From Yuukianura sp. NJ FZ-2021 (lineage: Eukaryota): a stretch of 64,000 bases of DNA. Positions 585 to 30,097 of the stretch are shown in pieces (the stretch's first letter is position 1; each line of letters starts with the position of its first letter). The DNA lies in assembly GCA_046563655.1 (NCBI GenBank), contig CM102287.1, positions 4,898,001 through 4,962,000 of the forward strand. The letters run 5' to 3'. The notes beneath the pieces were generated by a model. That model saw only the letters and a program-made list of their open reading frames with translations. It was not told where the DNA came from and ran no database searches. A program made the position numbers and the translations under genes.

Positions 585-2949
585 CTGTTCGACTGGGCAG
601 AAGAGGTGGAGAGAGAAGCGTTGTTGGAGAAGTCGTGATGGTTTTCTGCGGAGGAAGTAACTGCGCCCCGTGATTAATTGGCTGGAGTCGGAGGAGTTGG
701 TTGGAATGGAGGTCGACGGTCGTCGTGAGCGTGTTCTGATCAATTGAGTTGTCTCGACTCGAACTGTTCGTCCAAGCCATTTCCCTCTTCTTCACTGTCA
801 CTACCTTCAGGATCTTAATGTACACGACGACCATCACGCACAGGGGAAGGTAGAACGATACCATCGTAGCATAGAGCTGATACCTGCAAAAACCATACAT
901 TTTATACATCGATATTTCACTTCAGTTAACCCAAACTTTTACCTAACCTAACCAAATTGCACTCCAGTCGCTTTCAAAAGCCTGCAAATTGCTCCTCGCT
1001 CCTACTCCCCCTCCGCAAAGAAGATTCACCGCGACTGGTGAACTCATTATGCCGTTTTCACTAAGCGTTACAGCAGCTTCCAGGAAAAAAAAAGATCCCG
1101 GTTTGAGTAAAAATGAAATGGAACGGCAGAATCTCGAGGGAAGCCTAAGCTTTCTCCGCGGCCAAATTCAATTTGCGAGCAGCAGAAGTTAAGACACGAG
1201 TTCCCTAAGCAATCAGCCCACAGAGCGTCTTGAGAGTTTTAAAGAAGCTCAAGCGACTCTTTGTGGTTTCGACTCAACTACCTTCGTAGATTCCCGGGTT
1301 TCCACAGAATCTTAATTACTCCTCATGATTAATTTAGATTTGTGATCAATTACCAGTAGTTTTGAGAGAGGGAGCACGTCGGGTCACCGGCCGAGGTCAC
1401 GTACTCATTCCCCAGAAGAAGGACGGGGGGCAGAGAGACACAGGCAGATGACAACCAAACTACGAATATCACAGAGAGCATTCTTCTGTTTGATGAGATG
1501 GAAGAGTACTCGAGGGGACGAGTGATGGCTCTGTAGCGATCTGGAAACAATGTAACAAAATCGAAAGTCAGTGTTTACGAAATCAATTCTCAATTAACAA
1601 CTATTTCAAAACTAACCAACACATATACAACAGTATCATCGACCTCCTACGAAGGAGAACGTCGCATTGGCCAAAAGGAAATCAATCCATTGATGTTTTT
1701 GGAACAACGAAAATCTAAAATTTCAAAGGAAATCCTAATTCTTAAATCACTGCTAGCTCCTGCACATTCACACATCAAAGGAAAAATGCTTCTTCATTAA
1801 AAAAACAAAGCACTTTAAAAAAACACAGCTCTTCAAAAGAAAAAAAAACTCAACTTTTTTTCTTTTTTTACACCCCAAGGCTTTCTCCCGCCTTTCACCG
1901 CACAGTGATTAAAATCAACACGAAACTCGCTGTTGAACAACTGTTACGAAAATTAGAGTTTTAGCAAAGTAGAAGTAAAAGCAGACAGGTGAAAATCCAG
2001 CAGCAAAAAAAAATTCAATTTGATTGATTTCTTTTCTCTTCATTTAAGAGTTTCGTTTTTAGTTCTCTCTTAGCACGGATGAAACTTTCACTCTTACTGA
2101 AAATTTCATCACCTTGTATCACGCAATTCTGCACACTATTTAACACCAAGACAGCCCAGTCAATCAAAAATTGAACGATTTCTGTTCTTTTTAAAAGAAA
2201 CTTACCGACTGAAATGGCACAGAGATTCAAAATGGAGGAGCTACACAGGAGGACATCACCTAAACATGACAGAATCACTGATTAGAATGTATGGTCAGTC
2301 GAGGTCACCAAAAGGCTAAAGCGTAGATTCAAAGTTAAGGCTACGAGTTACATAAACAAGCTTAGCCAACCTTAACCGAACATGAACAAAGTAAAACTCA
2401 AAAAGTAAAAGACAACTAAAACTAAAAGTGAAAATGAAAGTAAGAAGTAGGATATGTTTACATAGGACCAAAAACGTGACAGAAAACAAAAAAAAAGAGA
2501 AAACTTGAAGGAAAGCAGGAAAAAAGATGACAAAAAGTAAAAGTAAATAAATAAAGCTCCAAAAGGTAAAAGTACAAAAAAAAAAGTCGAAATGAAAGTA
2601 AACTCACGCGATCAAGCAAAGAAAATAAAACAGTAAAAATGAAAGTAAAAACCAATGAAAATATAGAAAAAAGTAGAAATGTTCGCCGCTTACCTGAAAC
2701 CCAGAGATCACAGAGAGAGGACGAAAGTGGCCAGGCCCCTTCGTAGATTTCCTGGACAATAGCAAAGGGCATGACGAACAGGGCGACGAACAAGTCCGAC
2801 AGGGCAAGTGACACTAGCAAGTAGTTCTGCGGTTTACGCAACTTCCGGACGAGAATGACGGAGAGACAGACGAGGAGGTTGCCCACAATGGTGGCCATGA
2901 CGAGTGACAGAAGGCCGATGACCAGGATGGACTCGGACAGCAGCGACAT
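585..2949 (-). CDS. 5-HT7: Serotonin receptor, 5-HT7 type (class A GPCR), 5' part TM1-TM5 plus start of ICL3; continues beyond the left edge
   Basis: Exons 2949-2694, 2259-2206, 1540-1354, 883-585 join in frame at GT-AG sites. Motifs GNLLV, LRKPQNYLLVSLALSDL, DVLLCSSSILNLCAISVDRY (D3.32 and DRY), RPLEY, LPPVLLLGNE and YQLYATMVSFYLP match arthropod 5-HT7 receptors. Confidence 0.88.
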
Positions 2950-23215: not shown

Positions 23216-24482
23216 CCTCGGAACGTCATTAAGTAAATGATTGTCAAGCCAAAACATAACCGTACGCTCATTACAGAACGCGGCTGTGGACTTCATTGCA
23301 AAGCCATGTCGTGTATTTCGCCACTTTCCAAGTAAGTGATCTATTCCTTTAGGGCTTGCCCGATTACATCCCGAAGTGTAAAAAATTGCTTTATTTGCTT
23401 GAAACGTCAGGGATTTAGTGATTAGCATATTAAATTGCTGTGCTTGGTCGTAACATTCATATTTGTGTTCGCTTTATCTTTCCGCTGCTGATGCGTCAAT
23501 TTACTTTCCTTCTTCGGATCCTCATCTTCATAAGTGTGAGTGAGTCACTGAGTGGCATTTGTGTGGGCTTGACACTTGAAAAGGACGCGCCAGTGCAGTA
23601 GCCGCTTTTTTTTTAGTGCAAAGCTGCTTCGGCGTCTCTCTCGTTTTCATATGGAGGCATATCCATTGCAAAATGAGTTTCAATTTGCCGCTATGAATTT
23701 TCTTTCAAGAATGTTAGAATTTAAGAATTAAAAAAAATGAAGTTAAGCATCAGTTGAACAAAGTGAGAATTGGCACAAGTATATGGTAGTAAAATCAATT
23801 GCAGTCAAATCTAAACCTAGACGCAACGTTTATACCAGTGAAAATAACTAAAAACTAAATACAGAAAACGTTTCCTCATTGCATGAATTAACGAATATGC
23901 TACATAAAAATATAATATTTTAATCGCTGGGGAAGAAAAATGACGTAAAATTCAATTATTCAATTACATTAATGGCAAGCAAGCACGTTGTATTAAAGTT
24001 CAGTTACTATTGTAACTACTAACATAGAAAAAAAAATCTCAATTCAATTTCGGTAAAAAAATTGGGGTTGCGAAATGTGATTCTCAATTCTCGCAACTTT
24101 TCTCCGGGTTTGTTTATTTGATCGTAATTTTGCAACGGATATGCTTTCATATCCTCCTCTTTCTACCTCTTTCTTCCCTTCTTCGCCTCGCCTTGCATTT
24201 GTATGACAAAGTTCATCTTGTAACCACCATTTGTGCAAAAAGGAGAAGCACAACACTTCGCTAGAAAAGAAAGAGAGCCTCCTTTCCTTAGTTTTCTTTT
24301 CAAGTTACCGTCGATTGTCTGTTTCACTTCAGAGATTGATATTTATATTGTATTTATTTAGTCCAGTTTAATTTATTTAGTATACACTTCAGGTGTAAGT
24401 TTGGATTCTTGACAAAGTCAAAAAGTCAATCAAGCAAGCAGACGAACGTGAAAATCATACCAGCAGAAGCTATCAAAAGACG

Positions 24483-27400
24483 ATGAGCGCTGCACCAGGT
24501 CCACTCGTGGCGGCCATTGCTCCGAATCCTGAGGCAAAAGTCAAGGAGGACGATAACAAACCAAAACAGGTCACTCAGGGTCACAACAATTTCGGCAATC
24601 AACCGGGTAACAGTCAGAACCGTGGCGGAGGAGGGGGTGGGGCATTTGATCGCGGACCGAAGAGGAAGAGGGGTATGTTATTTTCTTTTATTTTACGTAC
24701 TTCTCTGTTTTTTATGTGCGTTTAGCGTAGCAATTAAAGAAATAAGCAGTTTTTACACATCATTCTGGAAGTAAACTCATCGTTTTCTTAACTTTACCAG
24801 GAGGTGGCCCGGTGGGTCCTGGACGAAATTCCTTCATGGGCCGCGGAGGGGGCGGAGGTGGCTCTTTTCACGGTGGTGGTGGTGGGTTCGAGCGACGATC
24901 TTTCCCGGGTGACTTTGATGGACCGTTGAACAAAAAGTCCAAAATGCAGAGTCCAGAGGTAACGTATTTTCCATCAATCCAGCTTTCAACGATCAGATGA
25001 CTTTACTTTGTTACTCATACTCGAATTCAATAATCTTTTATCCCAATTTCTGACCTTTCAGTTTCGAGTTCTGGAGAAGTTGAGGTCTATCCAGGGTCCT
25101 ACCATTGATTTACCCGCGATACCTTTCGAACTCAAGAAGTTCTTGGCCAATACTCGCTTATACATTGGAAACATCGCGCCCGATGTGACAGAAACTGAAA
25201 TCAAGGATTTGTTCGCAACGTATGGTGAAGTTGACGAAGTTTTCATCAACCGGGAGAAGAATTTTGGCTTCCTCAAATTGGTAACTTACAGTCAACGCTT
25301 ATGATTCTCTTCCTTTATACTTTTACACCTTATGTGATGATTGCGGAATTACCGTTTGACAATTTGAGTGAAACCAACTCGCTGGCTGCTTATTCTGATT
25401 ATCTACGAAACAAACACCAAAACATCTTACTGACAAGACGGAAGGAGGCTTATGCTTTTTGTCTGATATGGTTTAGGATTTCCGCACTAACGCAGAAAGA
25501 GCGAGGTCAGAGTTGGATCAACATCAGTTGAATAATCGGATGATCAAGGTTCGCTTTGCTCCAGCGACTGTGCGAGTCAAGGTCAAAAATCTCAACCCAA
25601 TGGTCTCAAATGAACTTCTCGAACTAGCCTTTGGAATCTTTGGCGACGTAAGTTGTACTTTATTTTCATTGTTTCTTATCATCGGTAGTAAGTAGTTCAC
25701 CTTATGATGAGACCACGGAATTACCGTTTGATTTAAAGCATGAAACTTATTCTTTGGCTGCTTTTTCATCTGAAATTAACATTTAAAACAAAGAGTATGT
25801 TATCATTATGTATACGCTTGCACTAAGAAAAATACAAAGTGTTTTGATTTCAGATCGAGAGAGCTCTTGTATTTGTGGATGAGAAGGGCAAATCAACTGG
25901 GGAAGGGATCGTTGATTTTACGAGGAAAAACAATGCAGCCATGGCTCACAAAATCTGCTCCGAAAAATGTTTCTTCATTACTTCTGATCTTCGCCCAGTT
26001 ATTACTGAGATGGGTGAAATGTGTGAAATGGACGAAGGACTCTTGGAGATGAATCTTCCCAGGAGAGACTACAGGCGAGGCATGGAATTGGATTATCATA
26101 AGGCGCGAGAGGTATGAAATAGTTACAAAATATAAAGCAGATTGAAAACTGAAACACATTGATTTTGCTTACGAAGTTTTCTAAAACCAGCTGATAATAC
26201 TCATTGTCATGTTTTCAGATCGGACCTCGTATTGCAGAGGAAGGAACGTTTGAGGCTGACTATGGTGAAAAATGGAAGGCACTTGTGCAGGAATTCAAGA
26301 AGAAGGAAATTGCACTGAAGGAAGAGATGGAGAAGGAAATCGAGAAGCTTCACACTCAAATTGAAATGGCTCGTTATGACTATGAGACGGAGATGCTGCG
26401 GCAACGTAAGTTAAATAACATAGTTATTTCTGATTACTCGTTGTACTGATGCTTCAGGACAAGCTGTAATGTGTGTTATTTTGTTCCAGAACTTCGACAA
26501 AGAGAACAAGATCATGAGCGTCACAAAATGGAGTACGAGAATCGTGTTCCACGAGACTTTGGTCCGAGAGGTGGTGGCGGAGGTTTTGCCAATGGATCTG
26601 GCCCTGGAAACGCTATCAATCGACAGGCAGTAATGGAGTCGCAACAACAAATGGCTTTGGAACAAATGGAAAATGCTAACGGCGATGGAGCACATGCTCT
26701 AGGTGGTTTTTTCATCGGTTCGAACAAAATTAGCTTTGATTATTTTTATTTTGCTTTCCTAACAACTCCCGGGAGCGGGATCACCCGACGGTGCGAGAGG
26801 GGAACGAAATGATGAAATCACGGAATTACCGTTTGAAACAACCCAGTTCGTGAAAAATGTTCTGTGGCTGCTTTTTGTCTGATTTTCGTTTACATTTCAC
26901 TTTTACTAACTTTATTAGTTAAATTGTTTTAGTGACATTCTGTATATTCATGACCTTCTCTTTTGTGTCAACAGGCGGAAATGCTGGAGGAAACATTCCA
27001 TCGTTGGCTCCGCCCCCAATGCCACCGCAAGGACTCATGGCTCATCTTCAGAACGAGCAGCAAGCTCCAGTAGCTGGATCGCAAGGACCGACTTGGGTAA
27101 GTCCCTATTTCAGATTTACCATTCGAGTTTTAGAGAATTTGAAATTAGTTCCCAGCTTGTGGAGCCGAATTCCTCATATCATATCGATTTGTTCCGGATT
27201 AATGACATGTCTCTAAAACGCGGGCTTTCTTTTTGGGATGAGATTTTTGGACAATCCGATTTTAGAGAAGAAACACTTTCTGTCTCGTGAGTCGTTCGCA
27301 TCGGCCTTTAGGTTTTAGATGAACTTTTAGGTATTCTGGATGGAATTCAGGAATTGTACAACTCAGTTTGTTCACTCATTGAACGGTCGTCGATTACTAC

Positions 27401-28504
27401 GCTTGCATTGCGATATTGCGAAACTTTTTAATTTTTTTTTCGGCAAGTTTCGAGTTTTGAAGATTTGGAAGGAATATGATTCAGTTACTAAATATGTTAG
27501 ACATGCAATCGTACTTGTGATAGAAGGTTTCAGAATTCTGAGCCATTGGTCTGGTAATGACCATTTCAAATGAAACTTTTGATCCATTGCATTGGAGAAC
27601 GCCTTATTTCCAAACACATTTTCTAAACGAAGCTATTGTGCGATTTTTTTGGGGGGTTTTCAGTAATAAGTTAAAATTTCATACTTCATTTTCATTTCAT
27701 AACCATTTAAAGACACAAGTTATACTATATTAAGTTATTCGAATTTTAAATTTTGATTTATATTGCGGTTCGCGGAACATTATAATGATAGAGGTTAGGC
27801 TTATTTAGTTTTCTTACTACAATCCTACACTTTGTCCAAAGAACATTTGAAATTTTACAATTTAAGGGTTACGAACTTCCAAGATCTCAGTTTTGAAGGA
27901 ATAAGTCATCTGCTGATATTAGTCTTTTGTCGTTTGCTCCTCGTCTAGTTTGGCAATTTAGTATTACTTTGAAAGTTATTAATTTGATTAGATTGAGGGA
28001 GAGTCGAGGAAAAGTTGCAGTAATTCACTCTAAATCTAAACTCTACTCTAAAAAATGTTATACTTGAAGAGCTCTGTTGCTCTGTATAGAAGTTAAGCTT
28101 CTTTAAAAGTAGGTACTTTTTTGAAACTTAAACTAACGGATACGTAATTTAAGTTTTTAAGTTGCGGAATTTTTTGTGGTTTGAGTTATGTACTCGTACT
28201 CACTTGTTAGTCTTCATTCGATTGGAATTGTCATAGGCCAGACTAGCAACGGAACTACTATTTCGGAGCGGAAAGCCTCAAATGTGATTTTAAAAGTGTT
28301 TCATGATTTTGAACTTGTATGTTCTCATAGGAAATTGGGCCTTTTGGCTTTGGGAGTCAAATGGGAGGTAACTTTGTGCAGCCAGCTTTTCGTAACGACG
28401 AAGGACCCCGCTTCATGGGGCCAAGGCCAGGGGGTCACCCAAGAGGTATGGGTGGTCGGGGTGGCCCACGCCCTTTTCGTGGCAACCGCGGTGGACGCCG
28501 TTAA
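24483..28504 (+). CDS. nonA: DBHS-family RNA-binding protein (NONO/SFPQ, nonA/hrp65-like)
   Basis: Exons 24483-24672, 24801-24958, 25062-25280, 25477-25647, 25854-26111, 26219-26405, 26490-~26702 (donor uncertain), 26975-27096, 28331-28504. RRM1 RLYIGNI..KNFGFLKLD, RRM2 VKVKNL..VSNELL..DEKGKSTGEGIVDF, NOPS GPRIAEEGTFEADYGEKWK, coiled coil, RGG-rich tail. Confidence 0.9.
25334..25398 (+). ncRNA. Box C/D snoRNA copy 1 (predicted 18S Um guide, snR77/SNORD65-like target)
   Basis: C box GTGATGA 25334, guide GGAATTACCG 25345-25354, D' TTGA, GGCTGCT 25384, D box CTGA 25395; about 78 nt upstream of the 3' splice site. Confidence 0.85.
25704..25773 (+). ncRNA. Box C/D snoRNA copy 2
   Basis: C box ATGATGA 25704, guide GGAATTACCG 25717-25726, D' TTGA, GGCTGCT 25756, D box CTGA 25770; about 80 nt upstream of the 3' splice site. 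Confidence 0.85.
26803..26890 (+). ncRNA. Box C/D snoRNA copy 3
   Basis: Terminal stem AACGAAA/TTTCGTT, C box ATGATGA 26809, guide GGAATTACCG 26822-26831, D' TTGA, GGCTGCT 26866, D box CTGA 26879. Confidence 0.88.
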
Positions 28505-29155
28505 ATTGTGTGCACTACAAGTGCAATTTTGGATCATGTTTCACTTTAGGGTGTGTAAACAGAACGTAATGTTCAATAATTTTCATTTATCCATTCTCCT
28601 AACTTCCTTAACTTTTATGTGGCAACAATCTGGAGCCGAATATTAGTAGTGTGTTGACCTCTTTGGAATGACAATTGGGATTTGGAAATTATAGTAAATC
28701 TATTATATTGCTTTGGAAAAACTAAAAAATATTTATGATGATGCGGACTTTAAAAATCTGGGATCGGGTTGGAGCTAGAAGGAATTGCATCGGCTGCAAC
28801 TACGCTGTTTTATAGGAAGTTACGATGAAATGACTTAGTTCTTTTTTAAAACTTTGTAGCCACTTACACTCGGTGGTTACCAAATCTAAAAATTGCAACA
28901 TGTGATTAGAGCGGGCGTAATTCCTCCTTCCTTCAACCAAACTCCGAATTCGGTCTAAAGGTTTTAACAGATTTGAATTTATTTCGTACAGATTTTTTTG
29001 GAAGTATTTATACGTTTTCGTTGATAAATTGAACAGATGAATTAATTGAGGACTTTTGTTTAAGATGTAAACTTTCGATCTAATCCTGCCAGCGATTTTC
29101 TTGGATACTTTTGTGTGATTTGAAATTGCTTTCCCTATTATCTTGCCGTTTTACT

Positions 29156-30097
29156 CATAGAGTTACCAAGACGATTCCATTTTTTTTCTTTTAACTAGAG
29201 TGGACATAAGGCATTTTTTCAACAAAATTTTTGAAACATTTCCAAAGCGACAAAAAAACCGTTTTCATCTCAAGTTTAAGCCAGGTTCACACACACGATG
29301 AATTGCAGGTACCATTTTTTAAAATTTCGAAAATTATTCGCGAATTCACGAAAAAAGTTAAATCTGGAGCCTTGTTTTCCAGAAAAACTATCAACCCTAA
29401 TTTATGATCTGTGACTAGTAGTGGCGTGGATGTAGATAGTAACTATAATTGTAGATAGTATATTTAAAGTTTAAATTGGCTTTAGCTGTGGTTAACTACT
29501 TAAAACTATTTGGAATTAAGTGAGATTTTCTTTCACAACAGAGTTTAAATTCGCGAATCGGAAATACTCTGGATCTAACATTACTGACCTCTGAAAATTA
29601 CAGTTTTGTTACAAGTGTTACGAATAGTAGTTGGGTTTAGCTTAACGGTTTCCTGTCTGGCTATGTAATGAAACCTAATCTTACAGTATTGTCTAATAAC
29701 CAGGCGAAGCAAAGTAATCACGTGGGAAGACTCAAAATTGTGTTCATCCATGCTGATCATCCTCAATTCTCCTAAGATGTCCCCTTGCTGAAGAGTTTGG
29801 ACGGTGACAACGAGGCCTTTCTTTTCTGGGCATACTAGTGACTACTAGTGACAGATATGGGCGGATATTTTGTCCCAACACCCCTGCTTTTCGCAATTTT
29901 ATTCATAATTTTAGAAATTTTGAAGACTGAAAATCTAAATTTCATTTTTTGTGTGAACCTTGCTTAAACTTCGGATGAAAGCGGTTTTTTACCTCTTTTA
30001 ACCTCTTTTAATTTGTTTCAAAAATTTTGTTGAAAAAATGCCTTATGTCCACTCTAGTTAAAAGAAAAAAAAATCGAATCGTCATGGTAACTCTATG
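29156..30097 (-). mobile_element. Non-autonomous, internally deleted P-superfamily DNA transposon (942 bp)
   Basis: ~80 bp TIRs beginning CATAGAGTTACCA and ending TGGTAACTCTATG; exact 8-bp TSD GTTTTACT at 29148-29155 and 30098-30105; internal transposase remnant. Confidence 0.88.
29581..29766 (-). pseudogene. C-terminal remnant of a P/THAP9-type transposase
   Basis: HVITLLRLVIRQYCKIRFHYIAR...IRNTCNKTVIFRGQ* resembles the conserved C-terminus of THAP9-like transposases and lies between the TIRs. Confidence 0.7.

Follow-up and report, generated by a model that had tools for sequence, protein, structure and literature searches.

Three paralogous candidate box C/D snoRNAs in introns of a DBHS gene of Yuukianura, predicted to guide methylation in helix 18 of 18S rRNA and to carry an extra-pairing element

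Three introns of a gene for a DBHS (NONO/SFPQ/nonA/hrp65-type) protein in Yuukianura sp. NJ FZ-2021 each carry an element that looks like a genuine box C/D small nucleolar RNA (snoRNA). The gene lies in a stretch of 64,000 nucleotides (nt) of the forward strand (GenBank assembly GCA_046563655.1, contig CM102287.1, positions 4,898,001 to 4,962,000), hereafter the window, and positions are counted from its first letter. We propose that the three elements are paralogous intron-encoded snoRNAs which would guide the 2'-O-methylation of a uridine (Um) in the 530 loop of 18S ribosomal RNA (rRNA), that a second conserved element in each of them would add extra base-pairing beside this target, and that the copies arose by intragenic duplication before the split from the species of an orthologous metagenome contig (L044). 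To this reading as a whole we give a probability of about 0.82. Elements of this kind, their target site and the arrangement of paralogs in several introns are already well known. New here are the DBHS host for this guide, the intron-by-intron turnover of its copies between two springtail-like genomes and a comparative case, drawn from alignments, for putative accessory pairing in this guide family.

The three copies (Table 1) share one order of parts: RTGATGA, a spacer of 4-6 nt, GGAATTACCGT, TTGA and a loop of 9-14 nt, followed by (G/A)TGAAA, a spacer, TGGCTGCTT, 3-6 nt and CTGA. In 3/3 copies, all of them on the sense strand of the host, box C (RUGAUGA) lies close to the 5' end and box D (CUGA) close to the 3' end. 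The 15-mer GGAATTACCGTTTGA occurs exactly three times in the window with no mismatch; when up to two mismatches are allowed, dinucleotide shuffles contain 0.20 matches on average and none of 100 shuffles reaches three. The alignment of the three copies has a mean column identity of 71%, and its invariant columns are those of the boxes, the guide and TGGCTGCTT, the spacers having diverged. From the end of box D to the last intron base, we measured 78, 80 and 92 nt in copies 1, 2 and 3, respectively. According to a position rule reportedly set out by Hirose and Steitz in 2001, intronic snoRNAs lie about 70-90 nt upstream of the 3' splice site. All of this agrees with an earlier note on this DNA, which had described three such elements in these introns, with diverged spacers, invariant boxes and guide, and a distance of 78-92 nt to the 3' splice site. 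A simple C/D regular expression (regex) run over all eight host introns returned these three copies only.

The guide, GGAAUUACCG(U), can form ten Watson-Crick pairs and one G-U pair with CGGUAAUUCC of 18S rRNA, and the fifth base upstream of D' (A25351, A25723 and A26828) faces the U of CGGU, the nucleotide that had been named as target in the earlier note by the D'+5 rule. This U follows what we take to be the decoding-centre G (E. coli G530, yeast G577). The site corresponds to fly 18S-Um586, human Um627 (SNORD65), yeast Um578 (snR77), Arabidopsis Um582, Xenopus Um592 ('65, 4 different copies') and Dictyostelium Um571 in a six-species table (PMC11014333), in which the U is methylated in all six species; the same table supports the equivalence of yeast Um578 and human Um627 on which the note had relied. 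The fly site has a score of ~0.93, and two snoRNAs guide it: CD22b (U49:66Db, in RpL14; snoscan 28.76) and CD46 (in Uhg5; 10.75). Viral contigs scanned for the 18S 530-loop motif gave 0 loci.

Membership in a wider snoRNA family was assessed with relatives from metagenome contigs. A scan of these contigs with a window-derived pattern of box C, guide and D' gave at least 127 matches in at least 123 loci. Among the matches listed, which is the scope of all counts of relatives below, a single repeated, bacterial-looking sequence accounts for 85/127 and about 8 others resemble coding sequence, and both groups were set aside; about 30 are snoRNA-like and show features that the pattern did not ask for, namely a UGAAA C' box, a GGCUG-type element, CUGA and strong terminal stems. 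A covariance model, R1, was built from 11 of the metagenomic relatives, none of them from the window or L044. Run over the whole 64 kb with filters off, R1 found copy 2 (45.4 bits, E 1e-10), copy 1 (37.8 bits, E 2e-8) and copy 3 (32.4 bits, E 9e-7), these E-values being rough, and no fourth site, the 21 other listed matches having E >=1.3. Over 20 sources, R1 gave 30 matches. In the R1 alignment, the terminal stem of the family is 94.1% paired, 6/6 of its pairs change on both sides, and its covariation score is reached by 0/500 shuffles, with slid controls at 24-37% paired; this alignment was fitted to the model, which favours structure.

All three copies carry the second conserved element, TGGCTGCT, unchanged. 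It stands 4, 7 and 6 nt from box D, however, and the bases beside box D differ, so that it cannot single out a particular nucleotide. With seven Watson-Crick pairs and one G-U pair, it is complementary to AGCAGCCG, which in 18S immediately precedes the guide target on the 5' side. The duplexes would be 8, 8 and 11 nt long in copies 1 to 3 and would end 4, 7 and 6 nt from box D, that of copy 3 including G-U pairs. A duplex of at least 6 nt with CCAGCAGCCGCGG, ending 3-8 nt from box D, can be drawn in 23/26 intact-guide family members, and it has a shuffle p <=0.05 in 21/26. At least six registers are used across lineages (AGCAGCCG, CCAGCAG, CAGCAG, AGCCGCG, AGCCGCGG and GCCGCGG). The 26 members are the R1 matches less four, namely L072:2394-2468 (guide starting AGAATT), L049:1358-1442 (opposite strand of a real match), L044:2744-2781 (cut by the contig end) and L054:1995-2072 (no guide). 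We consider that TGGCTGCTT most likely provides accessory pairing to the same 18S helix. This had been overlooked in the earlier note, as had the stemlessness of copies 1 and 2.

Such elements have been described by van Nues et al. (PMC3116282), in whose available text they are conserved 'in the second guide region', non-adjacent to D and complementary to rRNA immediately beside the target, sometimes overlap the target by 1-2 nt, and stimulate methylation up to five-fold. TGGCTGCTT could instead be a true box-D guide for a second target in rRNA or another RNA. Its invariance in the three copies and its location at the usual place of a D guide would suit such a role, and fly CD22b, which acts on this 18S site, is a double guide, with 28S-Cm3412 and Um3415 as its further targets. 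However, with the distances to box D that vary in the window and across the family, the fifth base would face different nucleotides, and the bases beside box D are unconserved. Moreover, the element shifts its register along one 18S stretch, which is expected for pairing strength and not for site selection, and the six-species table holds no row for a 2'-O-methylated nucleotide (Nm) between human 609 and 627 (PMC11014333). The D-guide candidate was accordingly ruled out on its variable spacing and register shifts, and we regard a second target as very improbable next to accessory pairing.

The host is, on the basis of its predicted translation, a DBHS gene with the arrangement RRM-RRM-NOPS. 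Its exons were defined by open frames, GT-AG borders and phase consistency. In single-exon translations, RRM_1 matches exon 3 with 36 bits and RRM matches are weaker in exons 4 and 5, and NOPS matches exon 6 with 28.4 bits (cut-off 27). PF00076+PF08075 are present in the best-matching relatives of exon 5, which go by the names hrp65-like or proline- and glutamine-rich splicing factor. It is because of these domain matches and homologs that we assign the gene to DBHS, as the earlier note had done in calling it NONO/nonA-like. The closest named relatives of exon 5 are springtail proteins (Orchesella dallaii 73%, Allacma fusca 72%), those of Lepidoptera being ~50% identical; the gene is thus that of a springtail or of a closely related lineage. 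No snoRNA was detected in the four other short introns (84-128 nt) or in the last intron of 1234 nt with R1 and the regex, and an Rfam scan by E-value over 27000-28700, covering the last intron and exon, gave 0 matches. The note's author knew of no DBHS gene as host for this guide family, and none appeared in the literature searched here. This search, made at limited depth, returned nothing relevant on a DBHS host for such a snoRNA or on springtail snoRNAs, and the string 'nona' occurs 0 times in the supplement of the fly C/D catalogue (PMC11014333).

Conservation of the copies was examined with metagenome contig L044, which carries the orthologous DBHS gene (tblastn identities of exons 4 to 8: 89, 92, 84, 44 and 70%) and is the only one of the 123 loci with a DBHS match at E <=1e-3. 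Over exons 4-6, 182/205 residues are identical between the window and L044 and only 26/67 fourfold sites are, so that neutral sites are near saturation. L044 has snoRNA copies in introns a (cut by the contig end), b, c and e, and the window in introns a, b and e. Identity between the two is 40/67 inside the snoRNA and 30/104 outside it in intron a (partial), 57/75 and 56/141 in intron b, and 52/76 and 96/231 in intron e; in intron d, which is snoRNA-free, it is 50/105. In a blastn comparison of 24001-29500 with L044, only exons and snoRNAs match, except for one long match, 25474-26112, which spans exons 4-5 including intron b. The intron-b copies are 82% identical over their variable part. We take these comparisons of aligned sequences to show purifying selection on the predicted snoRNAs.

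The same comparison bears on the origin of the copies. The set predates the split of the window and L044 species, because L044 retains copies in introns a, b and e, and it was followed by later gain or loss, plus decay. Intron c of the window is snoRNA-free, and the orthologous L044 intron (194 nt) has a copy (1906-1985, minus strand) that is nearest to the window intron-a copy (77% over the variable part). The L044 intron-e copy (1149-1228, minus strand) lacks three bases of box C (TATGGAAT) and has no C', but has retained guide, D', extra element and box D and scores 25.1 bits with R1; this copy is probably decaying. Copies 1 and 2 have in common the 8 bases CACCTTAT just upstream of box C, which fits a duplicated segment better than a duplicated mature RNA. 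These shared bases and the likeness of the L044 intron-c copy to the intron-a copy lend support to an intron-to-intron duplication within the gene, the probable origin put forward in the earlier note. Cis-duplication is the usual source of snoRNA paralogs, with 'intragenic duplication' as the main origin, in the portion of PMC2653536 available.

Several points weigh against the reading proposed here. The Rfam gathering scan of the window gave 0 matches, and a permissive scan gave snoR77Y at 20.8 bits for copy 1 and 17.6 bits for copy 2, far from the gathering value of 52, and no snoR77Y match at E <=10 for copy 3, which had weak matches to snoU83B and SNORD49 only; such was the outcome of the Infernal/Rfam comparison that the earlier note had suggested. 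D' (UUGA) and C' (UGAAA) are both off consensus, a deviation common to most relatives, and in copies 1 and 2 neither a terminal nor an external stem stands out from shuffles (p 0.18-0.81). The relatives agree in box C, guide and D' by construction, which leaves C', the extra element, box D and the stem as independent features, and the R1 E-values are, as said, rough. The extra element is weak or missing in 3/26 members (L054, L080 and the second L049 copy), and the members are related, so that 23/26 are not independent events. The motif CGGUAAUUCC is the resolved form of a published universal eukaryotic 18S primer, as far as its source is available, and not the organism's own 18S. Finally, the loss in box C of the L044 intron-e copy shows that copies can decay.

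On the side of homology, the alignments of copies 1 and 2 to snoR77Y coincide with its consensus in the guide and in the guide-D' spacing. One metagenomic relative, L068, which is tied to the window copies by R1, reaches 54.8 bits with snoR77Y, above gathering, and 12 further relatives match it at E 1.7e-6 to 3.4e-3. We therefore file the window copies as functional equivalents and probable homologs of the snR77/SNORD65/snoR77Y group and not as RF01178 members, because their own scores are below gathering though L068 passes it and R1 makes the link. Other weak Rfam matches in the window (twister-P1, SNORD26, ceN108, S15 leader and others) were rejected as noise, being on the wrong strand or exonic, with E >=0.47.

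The missing stems also raise the question whether only copy 3, whose stem has an energy of -6.3 kcal/mol, is active, copies 1 and 2 being poorly processed or decaying duplicates. Such a division would agree with the contrast between these two copies and the family, whose stem is 94% paired, and with the decay seen in L044 intron e. Yet R1 scores copies 1 and 2 above copy 3, their boxes and guide are intact, and conservation between the window and L044 is highest in the intron-b copy, despite the near-saturated fourfold sites. In addition, strong stems are likewise missing from the relatives that copies 1 and 2 have in L044 and L031 (0-3 bp), and the stemless state itself is therefore conserved. 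Stemless intronic C/D snoRNAs are said to be processed, according to work of Darzacq and Kiss in 2000. We thus find it unlikely that copy 3 alone works, and prefer three functional copies.

A further explanation is that the intronic blocks serve the splicing or autoregulation of the DBHS pre-mRNA, or are remnants of mobile elements, and merely resemble snoRNAs. DBHS proteins do bind RNA, and a conserved 18-nt block without snoRNA features is found at the start of intron e. However, the same module, with its covarying stem, occurs on many contigs without DBHS exons, L044 being the single exception among the loci; L068 reaches the threshold of a curated snoRNA family; and the 11 nt of the guide are an exact antisense match to an rRNA site whose methylation is universal. 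We give this explanation hardly any weight and retain intron-encoded snoRNAs as the interpretation.

In the mechanism that we propose, the copies would be transcribed within the DBHS pre-mRNA and released from the spliced intron by debranching, then by exonucleolytic trimming to the bound Snu13, Nop56, Nop58 and fibrillarin of a small nucleolar ribonucleoprotein. The 11-nt element upstream of D' (UUGA) would pair with CGGUAAUUCC, in the 530 loop of helix 18, so that the U of CGGU would occupy the fifth position of the duplex and receive its 2'-O-methyl from fibrillarin. UGGCUGCU, located 4-7 nt upstream of box D, would pair with AGCAGCCG and would not act as a methylation guide. The snoRNA would in this way clamp an unbroken run of ~18 rRNA bases, its C'/D' module being looped out, an 'extra base-pairing' of the snR75 type which might stimulate the methylation. 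The copies would have been duplicated from intron to intron before the L044 split and then gained or lost. More broadly, the guide may be a bipartite clamp of ~18 helix-18 bases across animals, which in springtails has moved into the DBHS gene, where 3-4 intron copies turn over by gain, loss and decay; this we hold tentatively, at a little under an even chance. If it is true, the supply of the guide would be tied to DBHS transcription.

The window copies share their predicted 18S target U with snR77 (yeast), SNORD65/HBII-135 (human), snoR77Y (plants; RF01178, clan CL00057) and fly CD22b/CD46, and share with the Rfam snoR77Y consensus the D'-side guide GGAAUUACCG and its one-base spacing to D'. 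They differ from RF01178 in scoring far below gathering and in having UUGA, not CUGA, as D', and from fly CD22b in not being double guides. Their host, a DBHS gene, is unlike those of the fly guides (RpL14 and the non-coding Uhg5), and human SNORD65 has a non-coding host. Isoform clusters that arose by cis-duplication (fly CD51a-c in dom and CD39a,b in drn; chicken) likewise place several near-identical guides of a single site in different introns of the same protein-coding gene. A multi-copy guide is also found in Xenopus ('65', 4 different copies; PMC11014333) and in the metagenome contigs L017, L049 and L072. Unlike here, DBHS is not among the fly C/D hosts (PMC11014333), and the occupancy of introns a, b and e differs from that of a, b, c and e in L044. 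Yeast snR77 belongs to the snR72-78 cluster in the available text of PMC3116282, unlike the copies in DBHS introns. As in snR75, snR76, snR70 and snR87/U16 of van Nues et al. 2011 (PMC3116282, available text), a non-guide element occupies an otherwise empty second guide region; as in the extra-pairing snoRNAs of that text, it is non-adjacent to box D, pairs beside the target and can overlap the target by at least one base. snR77 and HBII-135 are absent from the main-text lists of that study (13+11 yeast and 18 human snoRNAs), as far as these are available.

The putative methylated U adjoins the 18S nucleotide that monitors codon-anticodon pairing. As the site is kept from Dictyostelium to human (PMC11014333), a guide in a little-studied hexapod lineage fills an annotation, and all three copies escape the Rfam gathering scan. 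The window and L044, from two related species, cleanly exemplify how snoRNA paralogs turn over within the introns of a single host, and the 'extra base-pairing' principle would be extended to a family outside the lists in the available text of the original paper. Neither the turnover nor the accessory pairing alters the understanding of snoRNAs.

Table 1. Positions of the candidate snoRNA copies, their parts and the host gene in the window
Feature	Position	Length (nt)	Strand	Remarks
snoRNA copy 1	25334-25398	65	+	intron a; without terminal stem
box C, copy 1	25334-25340		+	GTGATGA
guide, copy 1	25345-25355		+	
D', copy 1	25356-25359		+	TTGA
C'-like box, copy 1	25369-25374		+	TGAAAC
extra-pairing element, copy 1	25383-25390		+	TGGCTGCT; putative
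box D, copy 1	25395-25398		+	CTGA
snoRNA copy 2	25704-25773	70	+	intron b; without terminal stem
box C, copy 2	25704-25710		+	ATGATGA
guide, copy 2	25717-25727		+	
D', copy 2	25728-25731		+	
C'-like box, copy 2	25741-25746		+	TGAAAC
extra-pairing element, copy 2	25755-25762		+	putative
box D, copy 2	25770-25773		+	
snoRNA copy 3	26809-26882	74	+	intron e; 26802-26891 with terminal stem
box C, copy 3	26809-26815		+	ATGATGA
guide, copy 3	26822-26832		+	
D', copy 3	26833-26836		+	
C'-like box, copy 3	26851-26856		+	TGAAAA
extended extra-pairing element, copy 3	26862-26872		+	CTGTGGCTGCT; putative
box D, copy 3	26879-26882		+	CTGA
terminal stem, copy 3	26802-26808 with 26885-26891		+	7 bp including one G-U
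host gene (DBHS)	24483..28504		+	NONO/SFPQ/nonA/hrp65-type protein; nine coding exons
exon 1	24483-24672		+	
exon 2	24801-24958		+	
exon 3	25062-25280		+	
intron a	25281-25476		+	snoRNA copy 1
exon 4	25477-25647		+	
intron b	25648-25853		+	snoRNA copy 2
exon 5	25854-26111		+	
intron c	26112-26218	107	+	
exon 6	26219-26405		+	
exon 7	26490-26702		+	
intron e	26703-26974		+	snoRNA copy 3
exon 8	26975-27096		+	
exon 9	28331-28504		+	

The conserved block at the start of intron e (26714-26731, ATCGGTTCGAACAAAATT) is 17/18 identical in L044, the remaining intron outside the snoRNA being ~40% identical. Reading through the start of this intron in the frame of exon 7 gives ...GGF..IG(S/A)NKI(S/A) in both the window and L044, and the block may encode an alternative C-terminal isoform produced by intron retention or a downstream donor. 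There are hrp65 isoforms that differ at the C-terminus.

Metagenome contig L031 holds a copy (912-995, minus strand) that is most like the window intron-b copy (79%). It lies ~215 nt upstream of a G/R-rich terminal exon resembling the last DBHS exon of the window, a similarity of low complexity, and it may belong to a more remote DBHS ortholog, as a copy in its last intron.

Elsewhere among the metagenomic relatives, the guide snoRNA has other snoRNAs as neighbours. L039 carries a SNORD24 match (42.7, gathering 41) and snR61-, SNORD31- and Z157-like matches beside it, L088 a U14-like match and L068 a SNORD70-like match; in other eukaryotes the guide therefore sits in mixed snoRNA clusters, not in DBHS genes. 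L017, L049 and L072 have 2-3 copies of the same guide snoRNA per contig, 290-720 nt apart, and multi-copy arrays of this guide are thus common outside springtails.

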